From an uncultured Alphaproteobacteria bacterium (GTDB taxonomy: Bacteria > Pseudomonadota > Alphaproteobacteria > RF32 > CAG-239), in assembly GCA_944390275.1 (NCBI GenBank), contig CALXPL010000003.1, positions 18,373-82,372 on the forward strand: a stretch of 64,000 nt of DNA. The letters run 5' to 3'. Below the pieces are notes generated by a model. The model was not told the DNA's origin. It saw nothing but the letters and a program-made list of their open reading frames with translations, and did no database searches. This document shows positions 8,486-19,050 of this stretch, piece by piece. The translations under genes and the position numbers were made by a program. The stretch's first letter is position 1; each line of letters begins with the position of its first letter.

Positions 8486-11400
8486 TTATTTTATTGTCTC
8501 GCTCAGACTGCTCTTTTGCATTGAATCCGTGTATATTTTTGCAAAATTTCTAAAATCGGCAATATTGTTTATGGTTTCATCAATGTTGTGCAGGTCTATT
8601 GTTTCTGTTTCCATTGTATCTGTCAATACATTGAATATACTAATATAGGGGGTTGTGGCAAAATATGGCTCAAAGGTGTTCTTTAATCTGACAATAACCG
8701 TTTCTCGTCCCGCTTTCTTTAATGCCGTTGCCCATTCTAAAATTAATTGAATTTGCTCTTGGCTTAATGCTTTGCCTTCTTGGGGCTTTTCTATTAAATA
8801 TTTTATGTTATCGGCTGCATCTCCCCATTGTTGATTGTTCCAGAATATTTCGGCTTTTAGTAATATTCCGTTTCGGCTGTAATCTTCTTTTAATAATTCT
8901 AAGGCTTCTTCTGTCTTCTCTAGTCCAGATAAGGCTTTGGCTCTGATTATGCGGCGATGGGCTACGATACTTGGTGAAAGTTCATCACTTTCTGTCTTGT
9001 CTAAATTTTCTATGGCTTTTTCCGGTTCGTTATTAAATAAGTTTATTAAAGCCATTCTTGTTCCTATCGTTCCTGCTTCATTGGCTGTTAATTTGCCGTT
9101 TTCCATTTGGTGTGATAGAATATTATAAGCTCGTCCTAATAAATCAACAGCAACCAAGCGATCTGCTAATTTTTGCACAATCTCGTTGTAATACTGACTT
9201 TGCGGAGCCAGTTCATGATAATCTTGGTACAAGGCTAATGACTGAATCGCCGGCATTTTATCGTCTTGATTGTAGTAATATATATCTTCAAAAAATTTTA
9301 CCATGCGGCGTGTGATGGCTTCCGAATCTTTACTTAAACCTAAATTCTTGGCTTCTTTTAAAGTCTTTAAGGCTTGAGGGTAATCCTTATTTTGGGCATA
9401 GATTTCTGCTAACTCTTGCAAGACTTTTATCTTAAATTCTGCTTCTCCCCATGCATAACGCAATTTCTCGTATTCTTCTGCTGCTTTGCTTAAGCTGATT
9501 GTATTGGTTTTCTTTTGAATTTCAATTATTTTCTTTCTTGATAATACGGAATAGTAGTTGGCTGAGGAATCAGCGGCATTGCGGTATTCTCTGAGAGCGT
9601 TTAACGGATAGCCCATGGCTTCTAAACGGCGTGCGTTGTAATAGTTTATTGCGGCTTTGTTATCTGTTCCATCCGAATCGCGCAGTATTTCAATATAATT
9701 TTGAACAGCTAAGTCATCATTGGCCATTAATGCCGGTTCTATGGCTACTAATGCAATTCTTCTTCTAATTTCGTTCGGATAATTCTTTAGCATATATATG
9801 TATGGTGATATAACTTCATTGCTTCTTTCATTTGGTTGTAATGCCGCTATACTTAAGTTTTTCCAGAACCGTGCTTCTTCATTTTGTACTAAATTTCCGT
9901 AAGAAAAATCTTTAATGGCTTCTTCATAACGGCGCATCAGAAAATTAGCAATACCTCTCATACTGTGAAATGTATCACTCTCACTTTCCGAAGCTTTTTC
10001 TTTTTCTAAGGAGTTTAATATTTTTATCGCATTGCTCCCTAAGCCTCTGTTGAGAAAATAGCCGGCCTCTCTTAAGCGTATCTTGTTGGTATCTTGGCTG
10101 TCAGATGTTATGATGTCTTGTTCTAGAAGTTTTACGGCTTCTAAAAATGGTTTATTTAGTATTTCCGCTGGAATGTTCATTACAAATTGTTTGTCAATAT
10201 TGTTATCTCCGTATAATAAATTACGTCTTTTTAATTCATCTAATTCGGCAGAAATGTTTAAATTACCTTGTAGCTTGCGTATATTTATTCCGTTGGTGCC
10301 TCGTGTGATTTCTATATCATCTGATTTATAAATTAAAGCTAAACCATTAATCGTTTCTATAAAATCTAAATCAGGATATTGGTATGCATGGTTGATACCA
10401 ACGTTGGTGGTGTCGGTCGGAACAATGCTGATAACATCACCTATGTCGGGATCAAATATTGATATGATATTGCCAACGTTGTTTAATGGTGCATAAAGAT
10501 AAGAATGATTTAATGCGTCATATCTCGTATATATCGGTATTTCTTCCGTTTCCATATCTTTTCCTCCGGTGTAGAGATCTACTATCCATAGCAATCCTTC
10601 TTTTCTTAAATTTACTTTTATATCTTTTTCCGGAGTTAAGCGTATTATCGTTGCTTGTGGGTTGGGAAGTTGGTATAAATTTTTTGCTAAGGGAATTATT
10701 TCTTTGTTTAATGCTGCAATATCCAGATTTTGGTATTGGTCAAATACTATCCATAAGTGTTCACCTCTTTTAAATGCAGCTATGTTTACTGGTTTATTCC
10801 ATGAGAAACTTAAACTTCTAATCTTTAAAAGCGGCGCATTTGATATATCTGTTAATTCTTCTTCTTTAAAAGATTTTTCTGTCGGGGATACATCTATAAC
10901 AATTTGATTGCTTTGTTCAAAAGAACGTTGTGTGATTGCAGGTATTGTAAAAATGTATTTTTCAGGACTTTCTTGCTTAAAACTAATTTGATTGTATTTG
11001 GGATAATTTATCAAATTTTGTGTTGCAAATTTATAGGGCTTTTTAAAAATAATTTGTGTATTTTTTGCGTTTTGCTTTATTTCATATGGCGGAATCGTAT
11101 CAAAATGAAATGAAAAACGTGAAAATTTGTCATTCGCGCTATAACTTAATTCTGCTCCTTCTAAACCTTCCGGATTCATTTTTTGAGTTTCGGTTGGTGT
11201 GGAAAGAGGTATATTTATGATTAATTTGTTTCCTTCTCGGTAGTGGTTAATTGCCGTATCTTGTGTTAACTCAATGACAAAAACTTTTTTATCATCCGAA
11301 ACTTCATATTTTTTTAAAATTTGCGGATAACGCTCTTGTGTTTCTGCTAATTGATGTTCTACCGGTTGATTAAAGGTTAGGTGTACTTTCTTGTTTTGTT

Positions 11401-11584
11401 GTTCTATGGTGTAATCGTTTAATTTTCCTATTTCAAATTCTATGCGGAGGCTGTTTTTTTCTTGTAAGCTATGGACTGCGGATTGTACAGGAGTAACTGT
11501 TGAAAAAAACAACAAAAAGATTATTGCGATATGGTATCGTAATATTTGTTGAATAAACTTCTTTGATAACACAATCAAATGCAA
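8486..11584 (-). CDS. Large secreted TPR-repeat protein (1032 aa). It may be a flagellar-motor accessory or scaffold protein.
   Basis: It has an N-terminal signal peptide, a beta-rich N-terminal half and a C-terminal half of TPR-like helical repeats (for example AIKDFSYGNLVQNEEARFWKNLSIAAL and YYNARRLEAMGYPLNALREY). It is the last gene of the fliL-fliM operon, 1 nt after the motE-like gene. Confidence 0.55.
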   Translation of the reverse strand: MHLIVLSKKFIQQILRYHIAIIFLLFFSTVTPVQSAVHSLQEKNSLRIEFEIGKLNDYTIEQQNKKVHLTFNQPVEHQLAETQERYPQILKKYEVSDDKKVFVIELTQDTAINHYREGNKLIINIPLSTPTETQKMNPEGLEGAELSYSANDKFSRFSFHFDTIPPYEIKQNAKNTQIIFKKPYKFATQNLINYPKYNQISFKQESPEKYIFTIPAITQRSFEQSNQIVIDVSPTEKSFKEEELTDISNAPLLKIRSLSFSWNKPVNIAAFKRGEHLWIVFDQYQNLDIAALNKEIIPLAKNLYQLPNPQATIIRLTPEKDIKVNLRKEGLLWIVDLYTGGKDMETEEIPIYTRYDALNHSYLYAPLNNVGNIISIFDPDIGDVISIVPTDTTNVGINHAYQYPDLDFIETINGLALIYKSDDIEITRGTNGINIRKLQGNLNISAELDELKRRNLLYGDNNIDKQFVMNIPAEILNKPFLEAVKLLEQDIITSDSQDTNKIRLREAGYFLNRGLGSNAIKILNSLEKEKASESESDTFHSMRGIANFLMRRYEEAIKDFSYGNLVQNEEARFWKNLSIAALQPNERSNEVISPYIYMLKNYPNEIRRRIALVAIEPALMANDDLAVQNYIEILRDSDGTDNKAAINYYNARRLEAMGYPLNALREYRNAADSSANYYSVLSRKKIIEIQKKTNTISLSKAAEEYEKLRYAWGEAEFKIKVLQELAEIYAQNKDYPQALKTLKEAKNLGLSKDSEAITRRMVKFFEDIYYYNQDDKMPAIQSLALYQDYHELAPQSQYYNEIVQKLADRLVAVDLLGRAYNILSHQMENGKLTANEAGTIGTRMALINLFNNEPEKAIENLDKTESDELSPSIVAHRRIIRAKALSGLEKTEEALELLKEDYSRNGILLKAEIFWNNQQWGDAADNIKYLIEKPQEGKALSQEQIQLILEWATALKKAGRETVIVRLKNTFEPYFATTPYISIFNVLTDTMETETIDLHNIDETINNIADFRNFAKIYTDSMQKSSLSETIK

Positions 11585-11585
11585 G

Positions 11586-12263
11586 TTATTCTCCTTCTAA
11601 TCCGCTGTTGTTTAGGCTATTTCCTATTAAAGCATCCGTAATTGCTTTAGCCTTGGAGGCTTCCATTTGCGATATAATGGCTGATGAAGCGGAAGGTTTC
11701 ATCTCTCTTACTAAAGCTGTGGTTATTTCTAAATCAAGTGTATTAAATATTCTTGCGGCATCTTTAGGTTTCATGCTGGTATAGACTTTTACCAATGAAT
11801 CTAATTTTTCTTTTTCTTTTGCTGTATATTCTTTCATTAAAGCACGAAGTCTCTTTTCATAATTTTGAAGTTGAGCTAGTTTTTTTCCTATTTCTTCTTC
11901 CGTTACTTTTAACTGTACTGCTTTTTTATCAATTTCTTTGCTGCGTAAATCTAGTGCTTCTCTACGTTCTGCTAATTCTTGAAGTATGGCGATTTCTGAT
12001 TGGCTGAAACTTTTTCCTTTATTAACCGTTGTGTCATTTTTCGTTGTGGTTTCTGATGCTCCTTCAAGTATTTTGTTGAGTTCTGCCGTTGTATTGCCTG
12101 ATTGTTCTTCTGCTTGTGCCTGATTCGAGCTTAAGCTAAACGAATTGCTACCGCGTTGCTTTATGTTATCAACTACGTTATTAATCCTTAATGTTAGCAT
12201 TAGGACTGACATAAATATTACTATCGGCAATATACGAAATCTTTTGTTCTTTATCGGCTTCAT
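11586..12263 (-). CDS. MotE-like flagellar protein with an MgtE_N-type domain. It is signal-anchored and contains a coiled coil.
   Basis: The C-terminus SMKPKDAARIFNTLDLEITTALVREMKPSASSAIISQMEASKAKAITDAL matches the MgtE_N helical repeat found in MotE/FlbB-type flagellar proteins. It has an N-terminal TM segment and sits in the flagellar operon. Confidence 0.55.
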   Translation of the reverse strand: MKPIKNKRFRILPIVIFMSVLMLTLRINNVVDNIKQRGSNSFSLSSNQAQAEEQSGNTTAELNKILEGASETTTKNDTTVNKGKSFSQSEIAILQELAERREALDLRSKEIDKKAVQLKVTEEEIGKKLAQLQNYEKRLRALMKEYTAKEKEKLDSLVKVYTSMKPKDAARIFNTLDLEITTALVREMKPSASSAIISQMEASKAKAITDALIGNSLNNSGLEGE

Positions 12264-12286
12264 TTTTTTCTCTTTTTATTTCTTTC

Positions 12287-12766
12287 TTATTTGATGGCTC
12301 GTAAGGCTTTAAGCAATTCTAATTCGGCTTCCGAACGCATGGCGTCTTGTTCCGATATTTGTGTTTGAAATCCTTTTTCTTCTTTTTTCTTGTTTGATGA
12401 CTGGGGGGCCGTTTCTGATGGTTGTGGTGCTTCTTTTATTTTGCGGCTGTTGTGAATAACATTCTCCAATCGATCCGCTAAATTATCAGCTCTTTCATTA
12501 ATAAATGTTAAATCATCTTTTAATGTTTTGGCACTGTTTACTACTTCTTTTAGTTCTCCTGACGTGCTTTGGGTGGCACTCTTTAATTTGGGGATTGAGT
12601 TTTCTGCTTTATATGTTGCTTCGTTTAATGATTGTATCAATTTTGACAGGCTACTTTGATTTTGTCTGAGCAGGGTTAGGTTTTTGTTTAAACGGTAAGC
12701 GTAAATTATGGTCGGTATGAGCAAACCGATGATAATTATGTTGATGATTAATTCTATACTATCCAT
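12287..12766 (-). CDS. Hypothetical flagellar-operon protein with an N-terminal TM anchor and a coiled coil.
   Basis: 159 aa. Its start overlaps the fliM stop by 8 nt. TM helix IELIINIIIIGLLIPTIIYAY is followed by a coiled coil. No family was recognised. Confidence 0.45.
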   Translation of the reverse strand: MDSIELIINIIIIGLLIPTIIYAYRLNKNLTLLRQNQSSLSKLIQSLNEATYKAENSIPKLKSATQSTSGELKEVVNSAKTLKDDLTFINERADNLADRLENVIHNSRKIKEAPQPSETAPQSSNKKKEEKGFQTQISEQDAMRSEAELELLKALRAIK

Positions 12767-13865: not shown

Positions 13866-14423
13866 CTATCCTTGTTGCTGCTCTTTTTGTATCTCGAATT
13901 GTTTGATGTTAATTTTATCAATGTTCAAAGGGGATACGATAAGGTTAATTCTGTATAGTAATTCTTCTTTTAACCAAAACATGCCTTCGCTGTTGGTTAT
14001 TTCTTCCGGATATAATTCAACCAGGTGGCTGATAATGACATCTTGTATTTTTGATGACATGCCGTCAAGTATGCTAATCTTATCTTCACTTAGACTTTCA
14101 CTTTCTAAACTAACTCGCATTCTTGCACTCATCGGCGTGTCTTTTTTGCTTTTTAAAACTGTAATGATTTCCGGTAAATCGTAGTAAACCGTTGTCTTTT
14201 CTCCACCGCTTTTCGGATCATTATTGGTTACAATATTGTAATTCTTTATCTCTTTTTCTTTATGATTAAAAACAGCATAAAAACTTACAATTAATCCTAT
14301 AATGATTATTGCTGGAAGAATTATTAAAAGTATTTTCTTTTTATTTATTTGTTTACGATTGTTTTGGAGTTCTTCTTCCTCTTTATCAAAATCGTCATTT
14401 CGTCTTATCATCTTATTCCCCAA
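13866..14423 (-). CDS. fliL: Flagellar basal-body-associated protein FliL.
   Basis: 185 aa with a single N-terminal TM helix (ILLIILPAIIIIGLIVSFYAV) and a periplasmic FliL domain. It lies immediately upstream of fliM. Confidence 0.75.
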   Translation of the reverse strand: MGNKMIRRNDDFDKEEEELQNNRKQINKKKILLIILPAIIIIGLIVSFYAVFNHKEKEIKNYNIVTNNDPKSGGEKTTVYYDLPEIITVLKSKKDTPMSARMRVSLESESLSEDKISILDGMSSKIQDVIISHLVELYPEEITNSEGMFWLKEELLYRINLIVSPLNIDKINIKQFEIQKEQQQG

Positions 14424-14682
14424 TCAATGATATTTTATATCTAATCTAGTATATTATTCTTTAGATTAAAACAGGAAATGTTAACTTATTAAACGAAAAT
14501 ATTTTCTTTTTGATTAATCTTGTAATTTTAACTTTTAATTATCTTCTTCGTTTTATAATCTTTCTCAAGTTTCATGAACGACTTTGTTACAGATATGTTA
14601 AATTTTTTTATTTTGCAGCGTATCTTCTGGATTTCGGACGGCGTTTATGTTATGATGAAAAAAAATTACTGAGGTTGAGCTT

Positions 14683-15369
14683 ATGTATATTTGGGTGGTT
14701 TTGGCTACTTTTATCGCTATCTTGTACGGCTTTAATTTGTCCGTGCGTTCCGATATGCGCCAAATTTATGTCGAGCCTCAAGCTGAAGCCGCTGTGAGTA
14801 AAATTGTCTTGCAGCATCGTGCCGCTGAGAAATTTTTTAATGATAAAGTTGCTCAACATATCGGGTATAGTGCCGGAAGGGTTAATGTACAAACTTTTGA
14901 GGATTTTTTACCTGTCGGTTTTGATCCTAATTATGATGATGACGGAAAAACTTATTATATTACAACTATGTATTGTTTGGATAAAAATTCAGACAAATTA
15001 TCTGCGGCTGCGGCAAGTTGTAATGCTGAAAATTCTCTGAATTATTTAATTACGTACGGTTGTGTGCCTCAACGTTGGAAAAGTATCAAAGGGGGACGAC
15101 CGGCTAATGATTTGGTTAATGCTATGCGTCGTGTAACAGGTAGAGGTTCTAATTTTGGTTATACTCAGCTTGTTGAAGCTGATGCCGAAAAAAATGATTT
15201 GGGGACGGAAATCGGTATTAATACCGGAAATAATCAATGGTTATCCGTGCCTCAATATATCATTTCTCAATCGGGTACCTTGGGTGATGAAAGTTTTGCA
15301 TCAATGTGCGGACTTGATGGCGCTTGTGCTTATTGTATGGCTTATATGACACCGTATGAACAATTGTAG
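14683..15369 (+). CDS. Hypothetical protein with an N-terminal hydrophobic anchor. It is the first gene of an operon with the giant prepilin-like protein.
   Basis: RBS GAGG 8 nt upstream of the ATG. N-terminus MYIWVVLATFIAILYGFNLSV. The C-terminus is Cys-containing (CGLDGACAYCMAY). The gene is divergent from fliL. Confidence 0.45.
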   Translation: MYIWVVLATFIAILYGFNLSVRSDMRQIYVEPQAEAAVSKIVLQHRAAEKFFNDKVAQHIGYSAGRVNVQTFEDFLPVGFDPNYDDDGKTYYITTMYCLDKNSDKLSAAAASCNAENSLNYLITYGCVPQRWKSIKGGRPANDLVNAMRRVTGRGSNFGYTQLVEADAEKNDLGTEIGINTGNNQWLSVPQYIISQSGTLGDESFASMCGLDGACAYCMAYMTPYEQL

Positions 15370-15378
15370 GGGGTGCGT

Positions 15379-18145
15379 TATGTGGTTTGATAAAAATATT
15401 GCAAAACAAGATGCCGGTAGCCTTATGATCGAGGCTTTGGCTATGTTGGCTTTAATTGCTATGGTGACTCCTATCCTTTATAAAAAAGCTGCGGAAAGAA
15501 CAACCGAGTTGCAAGATATTAATGCTGCCAGCCAAATGCGTGTGATGATTAAAGCTGTTGATGATTATTTAAGCGATAATTATCAAGATATTATGGCTGG
15601 ACGTGAAGTACAAAATAATTGTAAAGGCACAAAACCTAACTTTTCTGATTTTAAAAATGCCGGTGATAAAGTTACTCAAGTCGATATTCAACAACTTTGC
15701 GATTATTTACCTTACGGTTTCTTGGATAATGCCGGTAATGTACAAGGGAGTTATTCTTTTTCCGGTTATCAACTTGCGGTTAAAAAACATGATGCCGGAA
15801 GCGATAACAGTAGCGCTTCTTTAACCGGATTCATTTTAGCCAACCCTAAGGCTGATACCGGAATTCCTTTGTTGCGCGCTTCTCGTATTGCTTCTATGAT
15901 TGGTAGTAACGGTGGTTATACTCAAGGTGATAAGGCTAACGGTGTGCAAGGTATTTGGCGTATTGATAATGTCAAAAATGAATTGGGTATGGAGCCTAAA
16001 GCCGATGGTTCAATTATTGCTGCTTCTATTCAATCTATTACCGATGGAAGCGGTATTAATGAAAACGTACTCTATCGTAAAGCTATTCCCGGTAAGCCTG
16101 GCTTAAATACAATGGAAACAACCCTTAGTATGGGCGATCACAATATTGAAGATGTTAACCAGCTTATTATTTCGGCAAATAATCCTGCCGGAGGAAATCG
16201 CGATGAAGCTCTTTTAATTGAAAATGGCGGTGGTGCTAAAATTGATGGTATGCTTGATGCTGCCGGTGGAAATTTTCATGTTGATACTTCCGGTAATACG
16301 GATATTGGCGGAAATGCTAATATTGCCGGCGATGCTGTCGTCGATGGCAGTGCCGATATTGCTGGCGATACCGGTGTGGGCGGAAATTTACAAGTTGACG
16401 GAAAAGCTGATATTGCCGGTGATACTACAGTTGGTGGAAATTTGACGGTTAATAAGGATTCCGATTTAAAAGGTAATGTTAATGTCGGCGGAAATTTAAA
16501 TGTTGCCGGTAATACAACTTTGAATAAACTAACCGTAAATGGACAAAGCGATTTTAACGGACCGGTTAATATTAATAATCAGCTTACCGTTAATGCTGAA
16601 GCAACTTTCAAAGAAGATGTTTTGATGGAAAAAAATCTTACCGTTAATGGGTCTATTCGCACTCCGGATTTGCGTTCAAAAACGTTGCGCGGTGGTTTGC
16701 AAGGCGATGATTTTGATACCGGTACTTATGCTTTTACCGCTTATTGGAGTGGTGAAAATAAACCTTATGATGTTTACATCGGTGTTAACAATGAAGTGAA
16801 AGTCGGTGATGGTGTTGTTCACATCGGGCGCAATAACGAAGTTCAAGTTACTGATAATAAAATGGTTGCCGGTTTGAATAACGAACTAGAAGTTGAAACA
16901 ACAGGTTCCGGTACAGGTACAGTTAAACTTGGTCCAACATCTACGGCTAAAGAATTTATTGTTTCTAAAGGAAAAACACTCGTTGATAATGGTGTCTTTG
17001 AAGTGCAGACTGGGGCTAATACTTATAGTCAGATTTTAACTTCTGATAGTCGTGTCGATATTATGCGAAATGCGAATGACGGACAAAGTTTATTTTCAGT
17101 TGAAGATAATGCTAGTGCAACGCGTGGTTCGGTGCATGTTCGCAAGGGTATTCTTGAAGTCGCTTCCAAATATGATAGTATTGCAAGTGTTGAAAGCACT
17201 TCTGCCGGTTATGTGAAAGCTGACCGTTTTATTGATAACAAACCTTTGGAAAGTGCTGCTTTACCTCGGATGGCTGTGAATGGTTATACGGCCCAAGGTA
17301 CGGCTTATACAAATTATCAAATTAATCCTGCTTACACTTCCGTTATGCATGATATTAAATTAACCAGCCGTGGCGGGGCACGCTTGAGTGATATTTTACC
17401 CGACTTCATTAATAAAGGTATTTATGTCGTTGATAATACTTATAAAGAAAGTGTTCCTTATTGGGCTAATTTGAACCCAACTGTTTCCGGCGGAACAGTT
17501 CAAATTTCCGGTCAGTCCGGTTATGCTTGTAGTGATTATTCTTGTTGGACTTCTCCTTGGCTTGGTATTATTCCTTCACCGCAATGTCCTCCGGGATATG
17601 CTAAAGTGGTAACGATTACTCCTGCTGGTTGGGCTATGGCTCAAGCCGGTGTCCCTCCTTCCGGTTCGGAAAGTACGCGTAAAGATTTATTATATCTGAA
17701 CGTACCCAAGAATCCTAATGATTATGCTTCCGGTTCGGCTGATGCTCCTATGCCCTTGTATTTTCAGAAAAGTACTTGGTTAAGAGCTAATGTTTATCCT
17801 CATGGTTCCGGGGCTAATTTTAAAGGTTGGAGTGCCATTATGGGATTTATGTATCCGTATTCTTATTACAAAACTTATATTGATGACCTTGGTGTAACAA
17901 TTAACAAAGACGGAGCGACAAGTTCAAGTCAATGGGTCGTTTGGAATCTCTTTCCGGTCTTGCGTCGGCAACTTGAAGCCTATGTTACGGTTTATTGTTA
18001 CTTTGATCGAACAAACAGTGCATACAACAGTAAGTATGTTGATAAGTACGACCAGTTAAATAATTTCCGTCAAGGTTGGAATAAGGATTCAACTTATAAG
18101 ACCCGTCTGAATGATGAAACTTTGACCTTTACGGATCCTTGGTAG
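15379..18145 (+). CDS. Giant (922 aa) protein with a type IV prepilin-like leader and central beta-helix-like GGN/D-x-x-IAGD tandem repeats. A pilin-like adhesin or fibre subunit is the hypothesis.
   Basis: Start chosen at ATG 15379 with RBS GGGGG. N-terminus MWFDKNIAKQDAG|SLMIEALAMLALIAMV has Gly at -1, Glu at +5 and a 20-aa hydrophobic helix. Residues about 300-430 contain repeats GGNANIAGDAVVDGSADIAGDTGVGGNLQVDGKADIAGDTTVGGNLTVN.... The C-terminus is Cys- and aromatic-rich. Confidence 0.5.
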
Positions 18146-18163
18146 TCATTTTTTAATGAAAAA

Positions 18164-18198
18164 ACCGCTGAAAATACCAGCGGTTTTTTTGTTTTTTT
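18164..18198 (+). terminator. Rho-independent terminator.
   Basis: accgctg aaaatac cagcggt hairpin followed by TTTTTTT. Confidence 0.65.
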
Positions 18199-18276: not shown

Positions 18277-19050
18277 ATGAAAAAGTCTTTCTTTTTTTCC
18301 GCATTTTCTTGTCTGTTGTTGGCAAGTTTTTCTTCTTATGCTCAATTTAATAATTTACGTGAAGGAGTGCAGTCTTTTCAGCAAGAAAGAGACGCTTGGC
18401 GACGACAAGATACTACCGAAATAAAAGTTTTGCAAAATATGCGTGATTCTTTAGGTAATGCTGCCGTACTTAATGTTACCGATGCGGAACAAGTCTTTTG
18501 TTATCAAGTTGAAAATCGTTCCGCAGATTATTCGGGATATACCCTTAATGGCTTTGCTGTTACCGGTTTTTGCGGTATTATTAATGATAACTTGAAAAAT
18601 GTTTTGGTTACACAATTCTTAACAAATGCAGATAATTTTGATTTTACAACCTCTGAACAATGTGTTATTCGACCGAAACTTATGATTCGTTTTGTTCGTG
18701 GTGTTGATATGACAGATGTCTTGATTTCTGCTCCTTGCTATTCTGTTGCCTTTTATTATGCCGGTAAAGTTAAGGCTTATAATTTTAAACCCGGTGGTGA
18801 GTTGTTGGATACGATGGTTACTTCTTTTGATGCTCAAAAACGAGATTTCATTTCTCCGACTCTTTTGAATCAAATGTTGCCAATCGGTGTTCCTCAAACA
18901 GTTGAACAGCAACAGCTCGTGCGTAAAAATTCTCAACCTATTCGTAATTGGGAAATGGCAAAAACTCCTGAAAAAAATTCTGCTTCCTCTCAATCAACAA
19001 AAAAAGAAACTACTCATGGGTGGAATAAGTTAAAGGTTAACATTAAATAG
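18277..19050 (+). CDS. Hypothetical secreted protein.
   Basis: Signal peptide MKKSFFFSAFSCLLLASFSSYAQ. No domain recognised. Confidence 0.45.
   Translation: MKKSFFFSAFSCLLLASFSSYAQFNNLREGVQSFQQERDAWRRQDTTEIKVLQNMRDSLGNAAVLNVTDAEQVFCYQVENRSADYSGYTLNGFAVTGFCGIINDNLKNVLVTQFLTNADNFDFTTSEQCVIRPKLMIRFVRGVDMTDVLISAPCYSVAFYYAGKVKAYNFKPGGELLDTMVTSFDAQKRDFISPTLLNQMLPIGVPQTVEQQQLVRKNSQPIRNWEMAKTPEKNSASSQSTKKETTHGWNKLKVNIK

Follow-up and report, generated by a model that had tools for sequence, protein, structure and literature searches.

A putative PilV-lineage modular pilin and a candidate PilM-like partner form a chromosomal two-gene unit in uncultured gut Alphaproteobacteria

The window, that is the whole 64-kb stretch of alphaproteobacterial DNA analysed here, contains a two-gene module divergent from fliL, and both open reading frames are present as given in a preliminary description of the sequence. 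The features of the module are collected in Table 1. The first gene encodes a 228-residue protein, referred to here as g228, and the second a large protein of 921 residues when counted from its MWFDK start, rather than the approximately 922 first reported; likewise, the distance from the g228 stop to the start of the large gene is 10 nt and not 9. The start that had been described as supported by a ribosome-binding site is indeed preceded by such a site, GGGGTG, and the lengths of the leaders across the family favour it over the ATG at 15356, further upstream, from which the gene is called in the database. The divergent region of 259 nt was correctly measured to the fliL TTG start at 14423, and extends to 271 nt with the called 181-aa FliL.

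Table 1. Features of the g228-large pilin unit, numbered from the first nucleotide of the window.
Feature	Position	Strand	Details
Extended -10 promoter-like element	14648..14656	+	TGTTATGAT; 35 nt 5' of the g228 start codon
g228 gene	14683-15369	+	ORF read from the sequence; 228-aa product
Shine-Dalgarno-like GGGGTG	15370-15375	+	4 nt before ATG 15380; read from the sequence
Large pilin gene	15380-18145	+	ATG 15380 (MWFDK start); 921-aa product
Class III (prepilin-type) leader, putative	15380..15418	+	MWFDKNIAKQDAG; residues 1-13, the last being Gly(-1)
PilV-like pilin module	15419..16234	+	alpha-1 helix and alpha/beta head; residues 14-285
Beta-helical stalk	16235..17179	+	residues ~286-600 of the 921-aa protein
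C-terminal domain and stop codon	17180..18145	+	residues ~601-921; presumed ligand-binding module
Intrinsic terminator-like hairpin	18155..18193	+	16-bp stem and T-run, 10 nt after the stop codon

In 30 of 31 species the sequence TGnTAnnnT occurred 35-55 nt 5' of the g228 start codon; a mononucleotide-shuffle control averaged 5.7 and never exceeded 14. The pair is predicted to possess its own conserved sigma-70-type extended -10 promoter. When the consensus sequences for CtrA, sigma-54 and sigma-28 were sought in the 259-nt intergenic region, none was found convincingly. At the other end a predicted hairpin, classed as a strong terminator, closes the two-gene unit, and the downstream gene, encoding a 257-aa protein, would therefore belong to a separate transcription unit.

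The large protein begins with a 13-residue basic leader ending in Gly(-1), followed by a hydrophobic helix of approximately 20 residues with Glu at +5 (MWFDKNIAKQDAG/SLMIEALAMLALIAMVTPIL), the putative processing motif reading MWFDKNIAKQDAG/SLMIEALAML. The pattern G-x4-E-A-x-A-[ML][LM], mostly preceded by leaders of 11-16 residues, was found in the 120 best homologues and in 109 of 116 further full-length representatives, and G(-1), E(+5) and A(+6) were kept in all 227 full-length relatives that carry the signal. The predicted prepilin-type motif is thus conserved far beyond chance. Identity across the family was only 24% in the leader, as against 82% in the alpha-1 helix that follows, as selection on cleavage and on helix packing would be expected to produce. 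Judged from these alignments, a genuine, family-wide class III (prepilin-type) signal is supported, and the prepilin hallmark recognised in the preliminary description extends to the family. The search with N_methyl/prepilin models that the same description proposed gave a different outcome, as the generic prepilin HMMs (Pfam N_methyl and TIGR02532) did not match the N-terminal fragments even at E<=10. Type IVb pilins are often missed by models of this kind.

Residues ~30-345 of the large protein are homologous to PilV, the tip adhesin/minor pilin of R64/PAPI-1-type IVb pili. The isolated N-terminal 284 residues matched Pfam Shufflon_N (PF04917) with 32.4 bits (threshold 27.5), a match that was not reported when the full-length window protein was searched against Pfam, while one homologue, P0102, scored 44 bits over profile positions 10-223 of 324; overall, 11 of 46 family members were matched by Shufflon_N. 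Annotated pilV genes in 106 plasmids were matched by tblastn (best E 8e-13), and the reciprocal search with plasmid PilV matched 55 related loci. Identity to PilV was 26-34% over ~230-310 residues, and the motifs LYRKAxPGxPxLNTM and RIAxxIGxxGGY are common to the window protein and a plasmid PilV. Structure prediction, which had been suggested as a check on the pilin-like N-terminal helix, bore it out, with the AF2 model giving a 65-residue helix at residues 2-66 and an alpha/beta head at pLDDT 83-92, that is, the long alpha-1 helix on a beta-sheet head of the pilin fold. TcpB, CofB and CofA were among the weak structural matches, and no family match to TadE, Flp or GspK was obtained in Pfam and HMM searches. 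On the strength of these comparisons, the 921-aa protein is most likely a modular minor pilin of the PilV lineage.

Autocorrelation of the large protein gave peaks at 6, 12, 18 and 24 residues, and approximately seven rows of 18 residues stacked in register over residues ~308-430, so that the roughly eight degenerate beta-helical repeats first noted are real. The stalk is a hexapeptide beta-helix with 18 residues per turn and differs in length across the family; no tandem repeats were detected at the DNA level. A bactofilin identity for the stalk was rejected (PF04519, 21.7 bits against a threshold of 27.9). Bactofilins and left-handed hexapeptide beta-helix proteins are cytoplasmic polymers or enzymes, whereas the stalk sits in an exported pilin context, and hence only the beta-helix fold is shared.

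The C-terminal domain occupies the last ~340 residues (about 601-921), with a mean identity of 55% across the family and an invariant block, MHDIKLTxRGGARLSDILPDFINKGIY. Its description as Cys- and aromatic-rich stands for the aromatic residues (Y 8.6% and W 4.3% in residues 690-921) and was overstated for cysteine, of which the entire protein contains six, two of them invariant (C736 and C873). The domain had no match in Pfam, NCBIfam or PDB sequences. A phmmer search against 1.84 billion representatives retrieved 380 clusters (at 50% identity) with E<=1e-3; in the 150 of these clusters that were listed the domain was always C-terminal, and full-length members measured ~830-1470 aa. It is presumed to be a ligand-binding module.

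In g228, the N-terminal hydrophobic helix starts at M1-Y2-x-W4; the protein also has a long helix and a beta-sheet, and four of its Cys are conserved. The uncleaved-looking hydrophobic start noted previously is leaderless, while the pilin fold and PilM-like nature of the protein had been missed. Its best structural match was R64-type PilM, and the GspI and EpsI pseudopilins were among its structural neighbours. R64/PAPI-1-type PilM (PF07419; PDB 3EOI and 3HG9) shares the fold, the leaderless hydrophobic helix followed by basic residues and the position beside a pilV-type gene, pilV and pilM being adjacent in PAPI-1-type operons (PMC3984277). However, g228 is ~80 residues longer, has the four conserved Cys and shows no sequence-level relationship to PilM; the gene order is also reversed, the PilM-like gene coming first. 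A Pfam search of 40 g228-family members returned no match at all, PF07419 included, and hhalign with a single PilM or with an eight-sequence PilM alignment revealed no relationship (probability below 1%). The search seeded with PilM recovered only 11 close relatives. The sole PDB profile match of the g228 family, to tyrosine phosphatases, was weak and implausible, and was rejected. Only structure and gene position connect g228 with PilM, and from the modelled fold we propose that g228 is the counterpart of R64/PAPI-1-type PilM, a pilin-fold partner that lacks a leader.

The order of pilin module, repeat stalk and distal binding domain, with a pilM-type gene adjacent, is that of PilV in R64 thin pili (IncI1) and PAPI-1/ICE elements. 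In contrast to PilV, at ~430-480 residues, the large protein is roughly twice as long (genomic loci encode 921 to at least 1282 aa) and possesses a long hexapeptide beta-helix, an unrelated C-terminal domain and a canonical Glu at +5; it is also chromosomal and vertically inherited in gut Alphaproteobacteria, whereas PilV is carried on plasmids and ICEs. Neither a shufflon nor an Rci recombinase accompanies it, since the search for inverted repeats yielded only AT-rich chance examples, no recombinase gene was found among the neighbours of the pair, and the terminator directly 3' of the large gene also argues against shufflon membership. CofB (ETEC CFA/III) and TcpB (Vibrio cholerae TCP) are likewise large three-part minor pilins of type IVb pili, with a pilin domain, a beta-repeat region and a C-terminal domain, which are located at the tip and start assembly. 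Both were among the structural matches for the two proteins of the pair, but they are much smaller, lie inside their own pilus operons and have no detectable sequence similarity to the pair. Modular type IV pilins are a described class that includes the CofB layout, the largest in one survey having 860 aa (PMC8179133). In Streptococcus sanguinis PilB/PilC and Thermus ComZ, the latter also with a beta-solenoid, a functional module is grafted onto a pilin module for display; the family described here differs in its modules, and no database signature matches those added to the pilin part.

The large protein has relatives in 265 species genomes, and the two genes were linked in all 72 gut Alphaproteobacteria species in which the region upstream of the large gene was visible. 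The chromosomal surroundings of the pair in 78 species consist of housekeeping and flagellar genes, and where flagellar genes were lacking Pfam identified the neighbours as housekeeping genes. No other pil gene accompanied the pair in these 78 species, in contrast to the type IVb pil operons of conjugative plasmids and ICEs, and no pilus machinery was found within +/-10 kb. The reported absence of PilB, PilC and PilD nearby holds over the 64-kb window and 10 kb past each end, and these ~84 kb were also devoid of genes for an ATPase, platform protein, secretin, major pilin or prepilin peptidase. When 12 type IVb components of an Enterobacter plasmid were compared by tblastn with 1.7 Mb of related loci and the window, only PilV was found. 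A canonical type IV pilin gene was nevertheless present in related genomes (L072:579-1280, with a fragment in L079), indicating that there are other pilins in this bacterial group, for which a literature search on pili returned nothing.

We consider it probable, at roughly 60%, that the pair is an operon in its own right, supplying the tip (or initiator) module of a type IV filament, with the genes for the filament machinery lying elsewhere. The class III signal would take the large protein into the inner membrane, cleavage after Gly13 would fall to a prepilin peptidase from another locus, and the highly conserved alpha-1 helix would dock the protein at the end of the pilus. The beta-helical stalk, of variable length, would then keep the conserved C-terminal domain of 340 residues clear of the fibre, where this domain may bind a ligand on host mucosa or other cells, and g228, acting in the membrane or at the tip, would probably prime the large pilin or stabilise it. 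The three-part layout shared with PilV and CofB counts in favour of this explanation, while the missing linked machinery, the lack of an N_methyl match and the structural-only nature of the g228-PilM link count against it. PilV C-terminal segments bind recipient LPS (PMC5297154). The preliminary description had offered a very unusual giant pilin, a secreted fibre or an adhesin tip; the last option fits the homology to the PilV tip adhesin, and the relationship to pilins and the beta-helical stalk are upheld, while membership of the PilV lineage means that the pilin is not of an unknown sort.

The absence of linked machinery and the location among housekeeping genes would also suit an orphaned, repurposed pilin pair, the matching pilus machine having been lost from, or never present in, these genomes. 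The PilV-like protein, with its helix cleaved or not, would then be anchored in the inner membrane and form with g228 an envelope or periplasmic fibre, a sensor or an anchor; g228 itself needs no peptidase, because it has no leader. However, strict Gly(-1) and Glu(+5) beside a freely varying leader are hard to explain without cleavage and helix-helix packing, a 300-400-residue stalk ending in a conserved distal domain has the look of a device for reaching beyond the cell, and the presence in related genomes of a canonical pilin gene points to a working type IV system. Moreover, PAPI-1 and Burkholderia Tfp7 operons can be without their own peptidase and borrow one encoded elsewhere (PMC3984277). 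An orphaned pair is thus unlikely.

It is more doubtful still that this self-contained combination of a leaderless pilin and a giant PilV-like protein, genetically uncoupled from any pilus machine and in most cases adjoining the flagellar switch operon, represents a new tip complex with a new receptor-binding fold, possibly on a machine not normally tied to PilV-type pilins, or a motility-to-attachment device of the gut. We regard it as improbable that the pair tips or caps not an R64-like type IVb pilus but a type IV filament of non-pilus kind, for instance a Tad-type fibre or the pseudopilus of a type II secretion system. Tad systems are common in Alphaproteobacteria, the G/SxxxEA site resembles those of TadE-type pseudopilins, and the GspI and EpsI neighbours of g228 point the same way; but the sequence homology is specifically to PilV, TadE, Flp and GspK are unmatched, and a distal domain of this size sets the protein apart from known pseudopilus caps.

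The pair abuts the fliL-fliM cluster in 51 of the 72 species (45 divergent, five co-directional upstream and one close by), and since both arrangements are seen this adjacency has survived an inversion. A flagellum-linked function, in which the pair would be co-regulated with or physically serve the flagellum, for example as a motility-to-adhesion switch or an accessory flagellar envelope structure, would explain the adjacency, but is very improbable given that fliL is missing from the locus in 21 species, that the pair is intact where no intact flagellar genes remain between uvrB and g228 (L061, L068 and L073) or only FliM and DUF6468 fragments are left (L071), that the predicted promoter is of the sigma-70 extended -10 type, with no sigma-28, sigma-54 or CtrA consensus, and that both proteins have pilin folds and not flagellar ones. 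The suggested co-regulation with motility is therefore not sustained, and the motility link of the pair is positional only.

The pair represents a variant, widespread though unstudied, of an adhesion device already known, and not a new kind of system; current models of type IV filaments are left unchallenged. It extends PilV, known mainly from conjugative plasmids and ICEs, to a chromosomal, vertically inherited form that has no shufflon and carries a long beta-helical stalk and an uncharacterised, putatively binding C-terminal domain, and it lends support to the view of R64-type PilM as a pilin-like partner of PilV. Its carriers, which include 'Azospirillum sp.' UMGS/CAG bins, Proteobacteria bacterium CAG:495 and Candidatus Scatocola, are uncultured gut Alphaproteobacteria common in humans, livestock and poultry, and the pair offers a concrete candidate for their attachment to mucosa or to other microbes.

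The large protein (921 aa), encoded directly downstream of the gene for the 228-aa protein g228, starts with MWFDKNIAKQDAG, followed across the putative cleavage site by SLMIEALAMLALIAMVTPIL. The preliminary description had read this N-terminus as prepilin-like, and the reading was borne out in the family, since the pattern G-[STG]-[LM]-[ML]-[IV]-E-A-x-A-[ML][LM] was present in 120/120 best homologues and, of 116 additional full-length representatives, in 109. Truncated N-termini or single substitutions account for six of the seven that lack it; the seventh, the database homologue P0187, had a different N-terminus. Across a 46-sequence alignment G13 and E18 were invariant, and identity was 24% in the leader and 82% in the alpha-1 helix (residues 14-66). 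The motif is no chance resemblance, and a variable leader before a conserved helix is the pattern that would be expected of a class III signal that is cleaved off ahead of a partner-packing helix. The proposed check with prepilin N-methylation HMMs was run, and these generic models were silent on the large protein.

The Pfam family Shufflon_N (PF04917) matched the isolated N-terminal 284 aa at 32.4 bits (threshold 27.5), the database homologue P0102 at 44 bits (profile positions 10-223 of 324) and 11 of 46 relatives searched as whole proteins. A tblastn search with residues ~30-345 recovered annotated PilV genes in 106 plasmids (identity 26-34%, best E 8e-13), the annotation being 'shufflon system plasmid conjugative transfer pilus tip adhesin PilV', and the reverse search with plasmid PilV as query matched 55 related loci (best E 1.6e-16). 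Plasmid PilV and the large protein have the motifs LYRKAVPGHPELNTM and RKIATRIGATGGY in common, as well as the order of a pilin module, a Thr/Ala/Gly-rich repeat stalk and a distal domain. AlphaFold2 (AF2), run on the 46-sequence alignment, drew the N-terminus as a 65-residue helix, with pLDDT 83-92 for the alpha/beta head, in a whole model of only moderate quality (pLDDT 66, pTM 0.34), for which Foldseek ranked the type IVb minor pilin TcpB top, weakly (E 0.04). The large protein is very probably a PilV-lineage pilin.

The stalk repeats showed sharp autocorrelation at 6, 12, 18 and 24 residues (residues ~308-430) and stack as 18-residue rows, DIAGDTxVGGNLxVxGxx, in which AF2 placed 3-residue strands, one per 6 residues. 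There were also weak matches to a PDB tail-fibre chain (E 9e-6) and to phage long tail fibre genes. On these features the stalk is beta-helical, as had been proposed, and not disordered; the Pfam Bactofilin score for the large protein was below threshold. The stalk is the least conserved part (24% identity) and spanned 327-427 residues in the 22 relatives with both flanking motifs locatable, whole proteins being 914 to at least 1282 aa long in the genomic loci, with a maximum of 1471 aa in database representatives. The distal domain, the last ~340 residues, is Tyr- and Trp-rich, with a mean identity of 55%, an invariant C736 and C873 pair and an invariant block, MHDIKLTxRGGARLSDILPDFINKGIY. 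Searches of Pfam, NCBIfam, PDB sequences, plasmids and phages gave no match to it.

The partner g228 is without a Pfam family, and its own family begins invariantly M1-Y2-x-W4, with no leader, no Glu at +5 and four conserved Cys. Its AF2 model was confident (pLDDT 88.7, pTM 0.82); the N-terminal helix is kinked and reaches residue 57, and a beta-sheet is also present. PilM of an Enterobacter plasmid likewise begins directly as a hydrophobic helix, MNYSIIAFLML, within a PAPI-1-type operon of the order major pilin, ATPase, pilV, pilM and prepilin peptidase. In PAPI-1 and Burkholderia Tfp7, pilV2 and pilM2 are reported to be adjacent, and their operons, having no peptidase of their own, to depend on one from another locus (PMC3984277). 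The PF07419-type PilM profile gave 3eoi and 3hg9 as its top PDB matches, both weak. A sequence-level link between g228 and PilM was looked for and not found, and g228 is therefore named PilM-like rather than a PilM family member; in its model it is pilin-shaped.

We propose that the giant PilV-type modular minor pilin and its PilM-like partner would together make up a tip or initiator module for a type IV filament; the key prediction is that the prepilin peptidase and filament machine would be encoded elsewhere in the genome. The alpha-1 helix would anchor the large protein in the fibre, the stalk would give it reach and the distal domain would bind ligand, by analogy with CofB, TcpB, PilV C-terminal segments, which bind recipient LPS (PMC5297154), and modular pilins in general (PMC8179133). 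The adhesin tip suggested earlier fits the homology to PilV tip adhesins; that the large protein works as a pilus tip adhesin, with prepilin cleavage and machinery as predictions, we hold with moderate confidence, at about 60%.

As described previously, PilB, PilC and PilD are missing nearby: the window and its 10-kb flanks on either side yielded no pilus ATPase, platform protein, secretin, peptidase or major pilin, and neither did the +/-10 kb around the pair in any of 78 species. A repurposed membrane-anchored orphan would suit these surroundings; for a pair whose large member keeps the class III motif, it is rather unlikely. Related gut alphaproteobacterial genomes have a canonical type IV pilin gene at 7-9 kb from the pair, beside proS at locus L072 (579-1280, + strand; 233 aa, MKYINENG followed across the putative cleavage site by RSMVEMLGVLAIIGVLS...) and as a fragment at L079 (35-214). 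At least some of these genomes thus have other class III substrates, an indirect hint of machinery elsewhere. About 10 kb past the window's right end, dprA (DNA processing protein A) lies beside topA near the dcw cluster (L086:1-946); it is compatible with DNA uptake and, being widespread, is no evidence of a competence pilus. That the large protein belongs instead to another kind of type IV filament, for instance Tad or T2SS, is improbable for a protein whose plasmid matches are annotated as PilV.

Relatives of the large protein occurred in 265 genomes in a scan of species representatives. All 78 retrieved loci were from uncultured Alphaproteobacteria or unclassified proteobacteria, with stated sources mostly gut, rumen or faecal, carriers including 'Azospirillum sp.' UMGS63, Proteobacteria bacterium CAG:495, Ca. 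Scatocola, and ruminant and Hadza bins. The g228 gene lay directly 5' of the large gene in 72/72 loci with a visible upstream side. A phmmer search of 1.84 billion representatives with the C-terminal 348 aa gave 380 clusters (defined at 50% identity) at E<=1e-3 and 209 at E<=1e-30; the distal domain lay at the C-terminal end in all of the best 150 of the 380, whose full-length entries were of about 830-1470 aa, shorter ones resembling fragments. In P0187 (966 aa) the distal stalk and C-terminal domain follow a Sec signal and BspA-type leucine-rich repeats, a fusion that arose either by domain shuffling onto a carrier that is not a pilin or through chimeric metagenome assembly.

Features of the pair and its surroundings (window coordinates)
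Feature	Position	Strand	Remarks
fliL-fliM operon continuation	8486-12766	-	DUF6468 protein, 225-aa protein, 1032-aa TPR protein
Extended -10 element TGTTATGAT	14648-14656	+	35 nt upstream of g228
g228	14683-15369	+	ORF, co-directional with large gene
Large gene	ATG 15380 (MWFDK) to 18145	+	921 aa
Terminator-like hairpin	18155-18193	+	strong; 16-bp stem plus T-run
g257	18277-19050	+	257-aa protein, Sec signal, no family match, after terminator

The public gene call starts the large gene at an upstream ATG (15356, 929 aa), and this start, in the stretch 15356-15379, overlaps the g228 stop codon. The downstream ATG is favoured because it fits both the leader lengths of relatives (mostly 11-16 residues, commonest 13) and the GGGGTG Shine-Dalgarno-like site that precedes it; the RBS-supported start described earlier thus stood, with sizes slightly corrected, to 921 rather than about 922 aa and to a gap of 10 rather than 9 nt after the g228 stop codon. 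In 30/31 species TGnTAnnnT preceded the g228 start by 35-55 nt, against a shuffle mean of 5.7. With this element and the terminator around it, the pair makes up a two-gene operon complete in itself, under a housekeeping-type promoter. The g257 gene is often, not always, syntenic with the pair, sometimes several kb off or on the opposite strand.

Divergent from the pair lie fliL, fliM, the DUF6468 gene, a FlbB/MotE-like gene, the 1032-aa TPR protein gene and uvrB. The 225-aa protein has weak FlbB (flagellar collar) and MgtE_N/MotE-like matches and the TPR protein a signal-like N-terminus; with DUF6468 their genes are syntenic in dozens of species, and the three may be lineage-specific periplasmic flagellar components. 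The fliL gene was divergent from the pair in 45 loci, had the pair co-directional just upstream of it in five, lay ~3 kb upstream with a g257 homologue between in one, and was absent from 21. In L061, L068 and L073 the uvrB-g228 interval lacked intact flagellar genes and the pair was retained. Between uvrB and g228, just FliM and DUF6468 fragments accompany the intact pair in L071 (7718-8403) and only flagellar-gene fragments (fliM, DUF6468 or FlbB-like) are left in L073 (6764-6934), such fragments not being detected in L061 and L068. This points to decay of the flagellar cluster in situ in some lineages, the pilin pair staying intact. Elsewhere the pair neighbours proS, pheST, rplT, fadL or an aldolase gene. 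The association with flagellar genes is thus common but dispensable. The suggested co-regulation with motility found no support, with no CtrA, sigma-54 or sigma-28 consensus in the pair's control region, no evidence of flagellar-class regulation found, and those 21 loci without fliL; a flagellum-linked role, which the common neighbourhood would favour, is very improbable. A stand-alone FliN-like gene (FliMN_C, 85 aa; window 34.6 kb region, L081:6908-7165), far from fliM, adjoins lipid A genes (lpxK, kdtA-like); in the source genome, flagellar genes are dispersed.

Modular minor pilins of the PilV lineage are an established class, and current models would not be surprised by the pair as a tip or initiator module. 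What is new in the large protein is its size, its long beta-helix and a distal domain without known match, and, relative to PilV, the missing shufflon, the organisation as two chromosomal genes away from any machinery and the host group, which make the pair relevant to pilus and gut-microbiome specialists.
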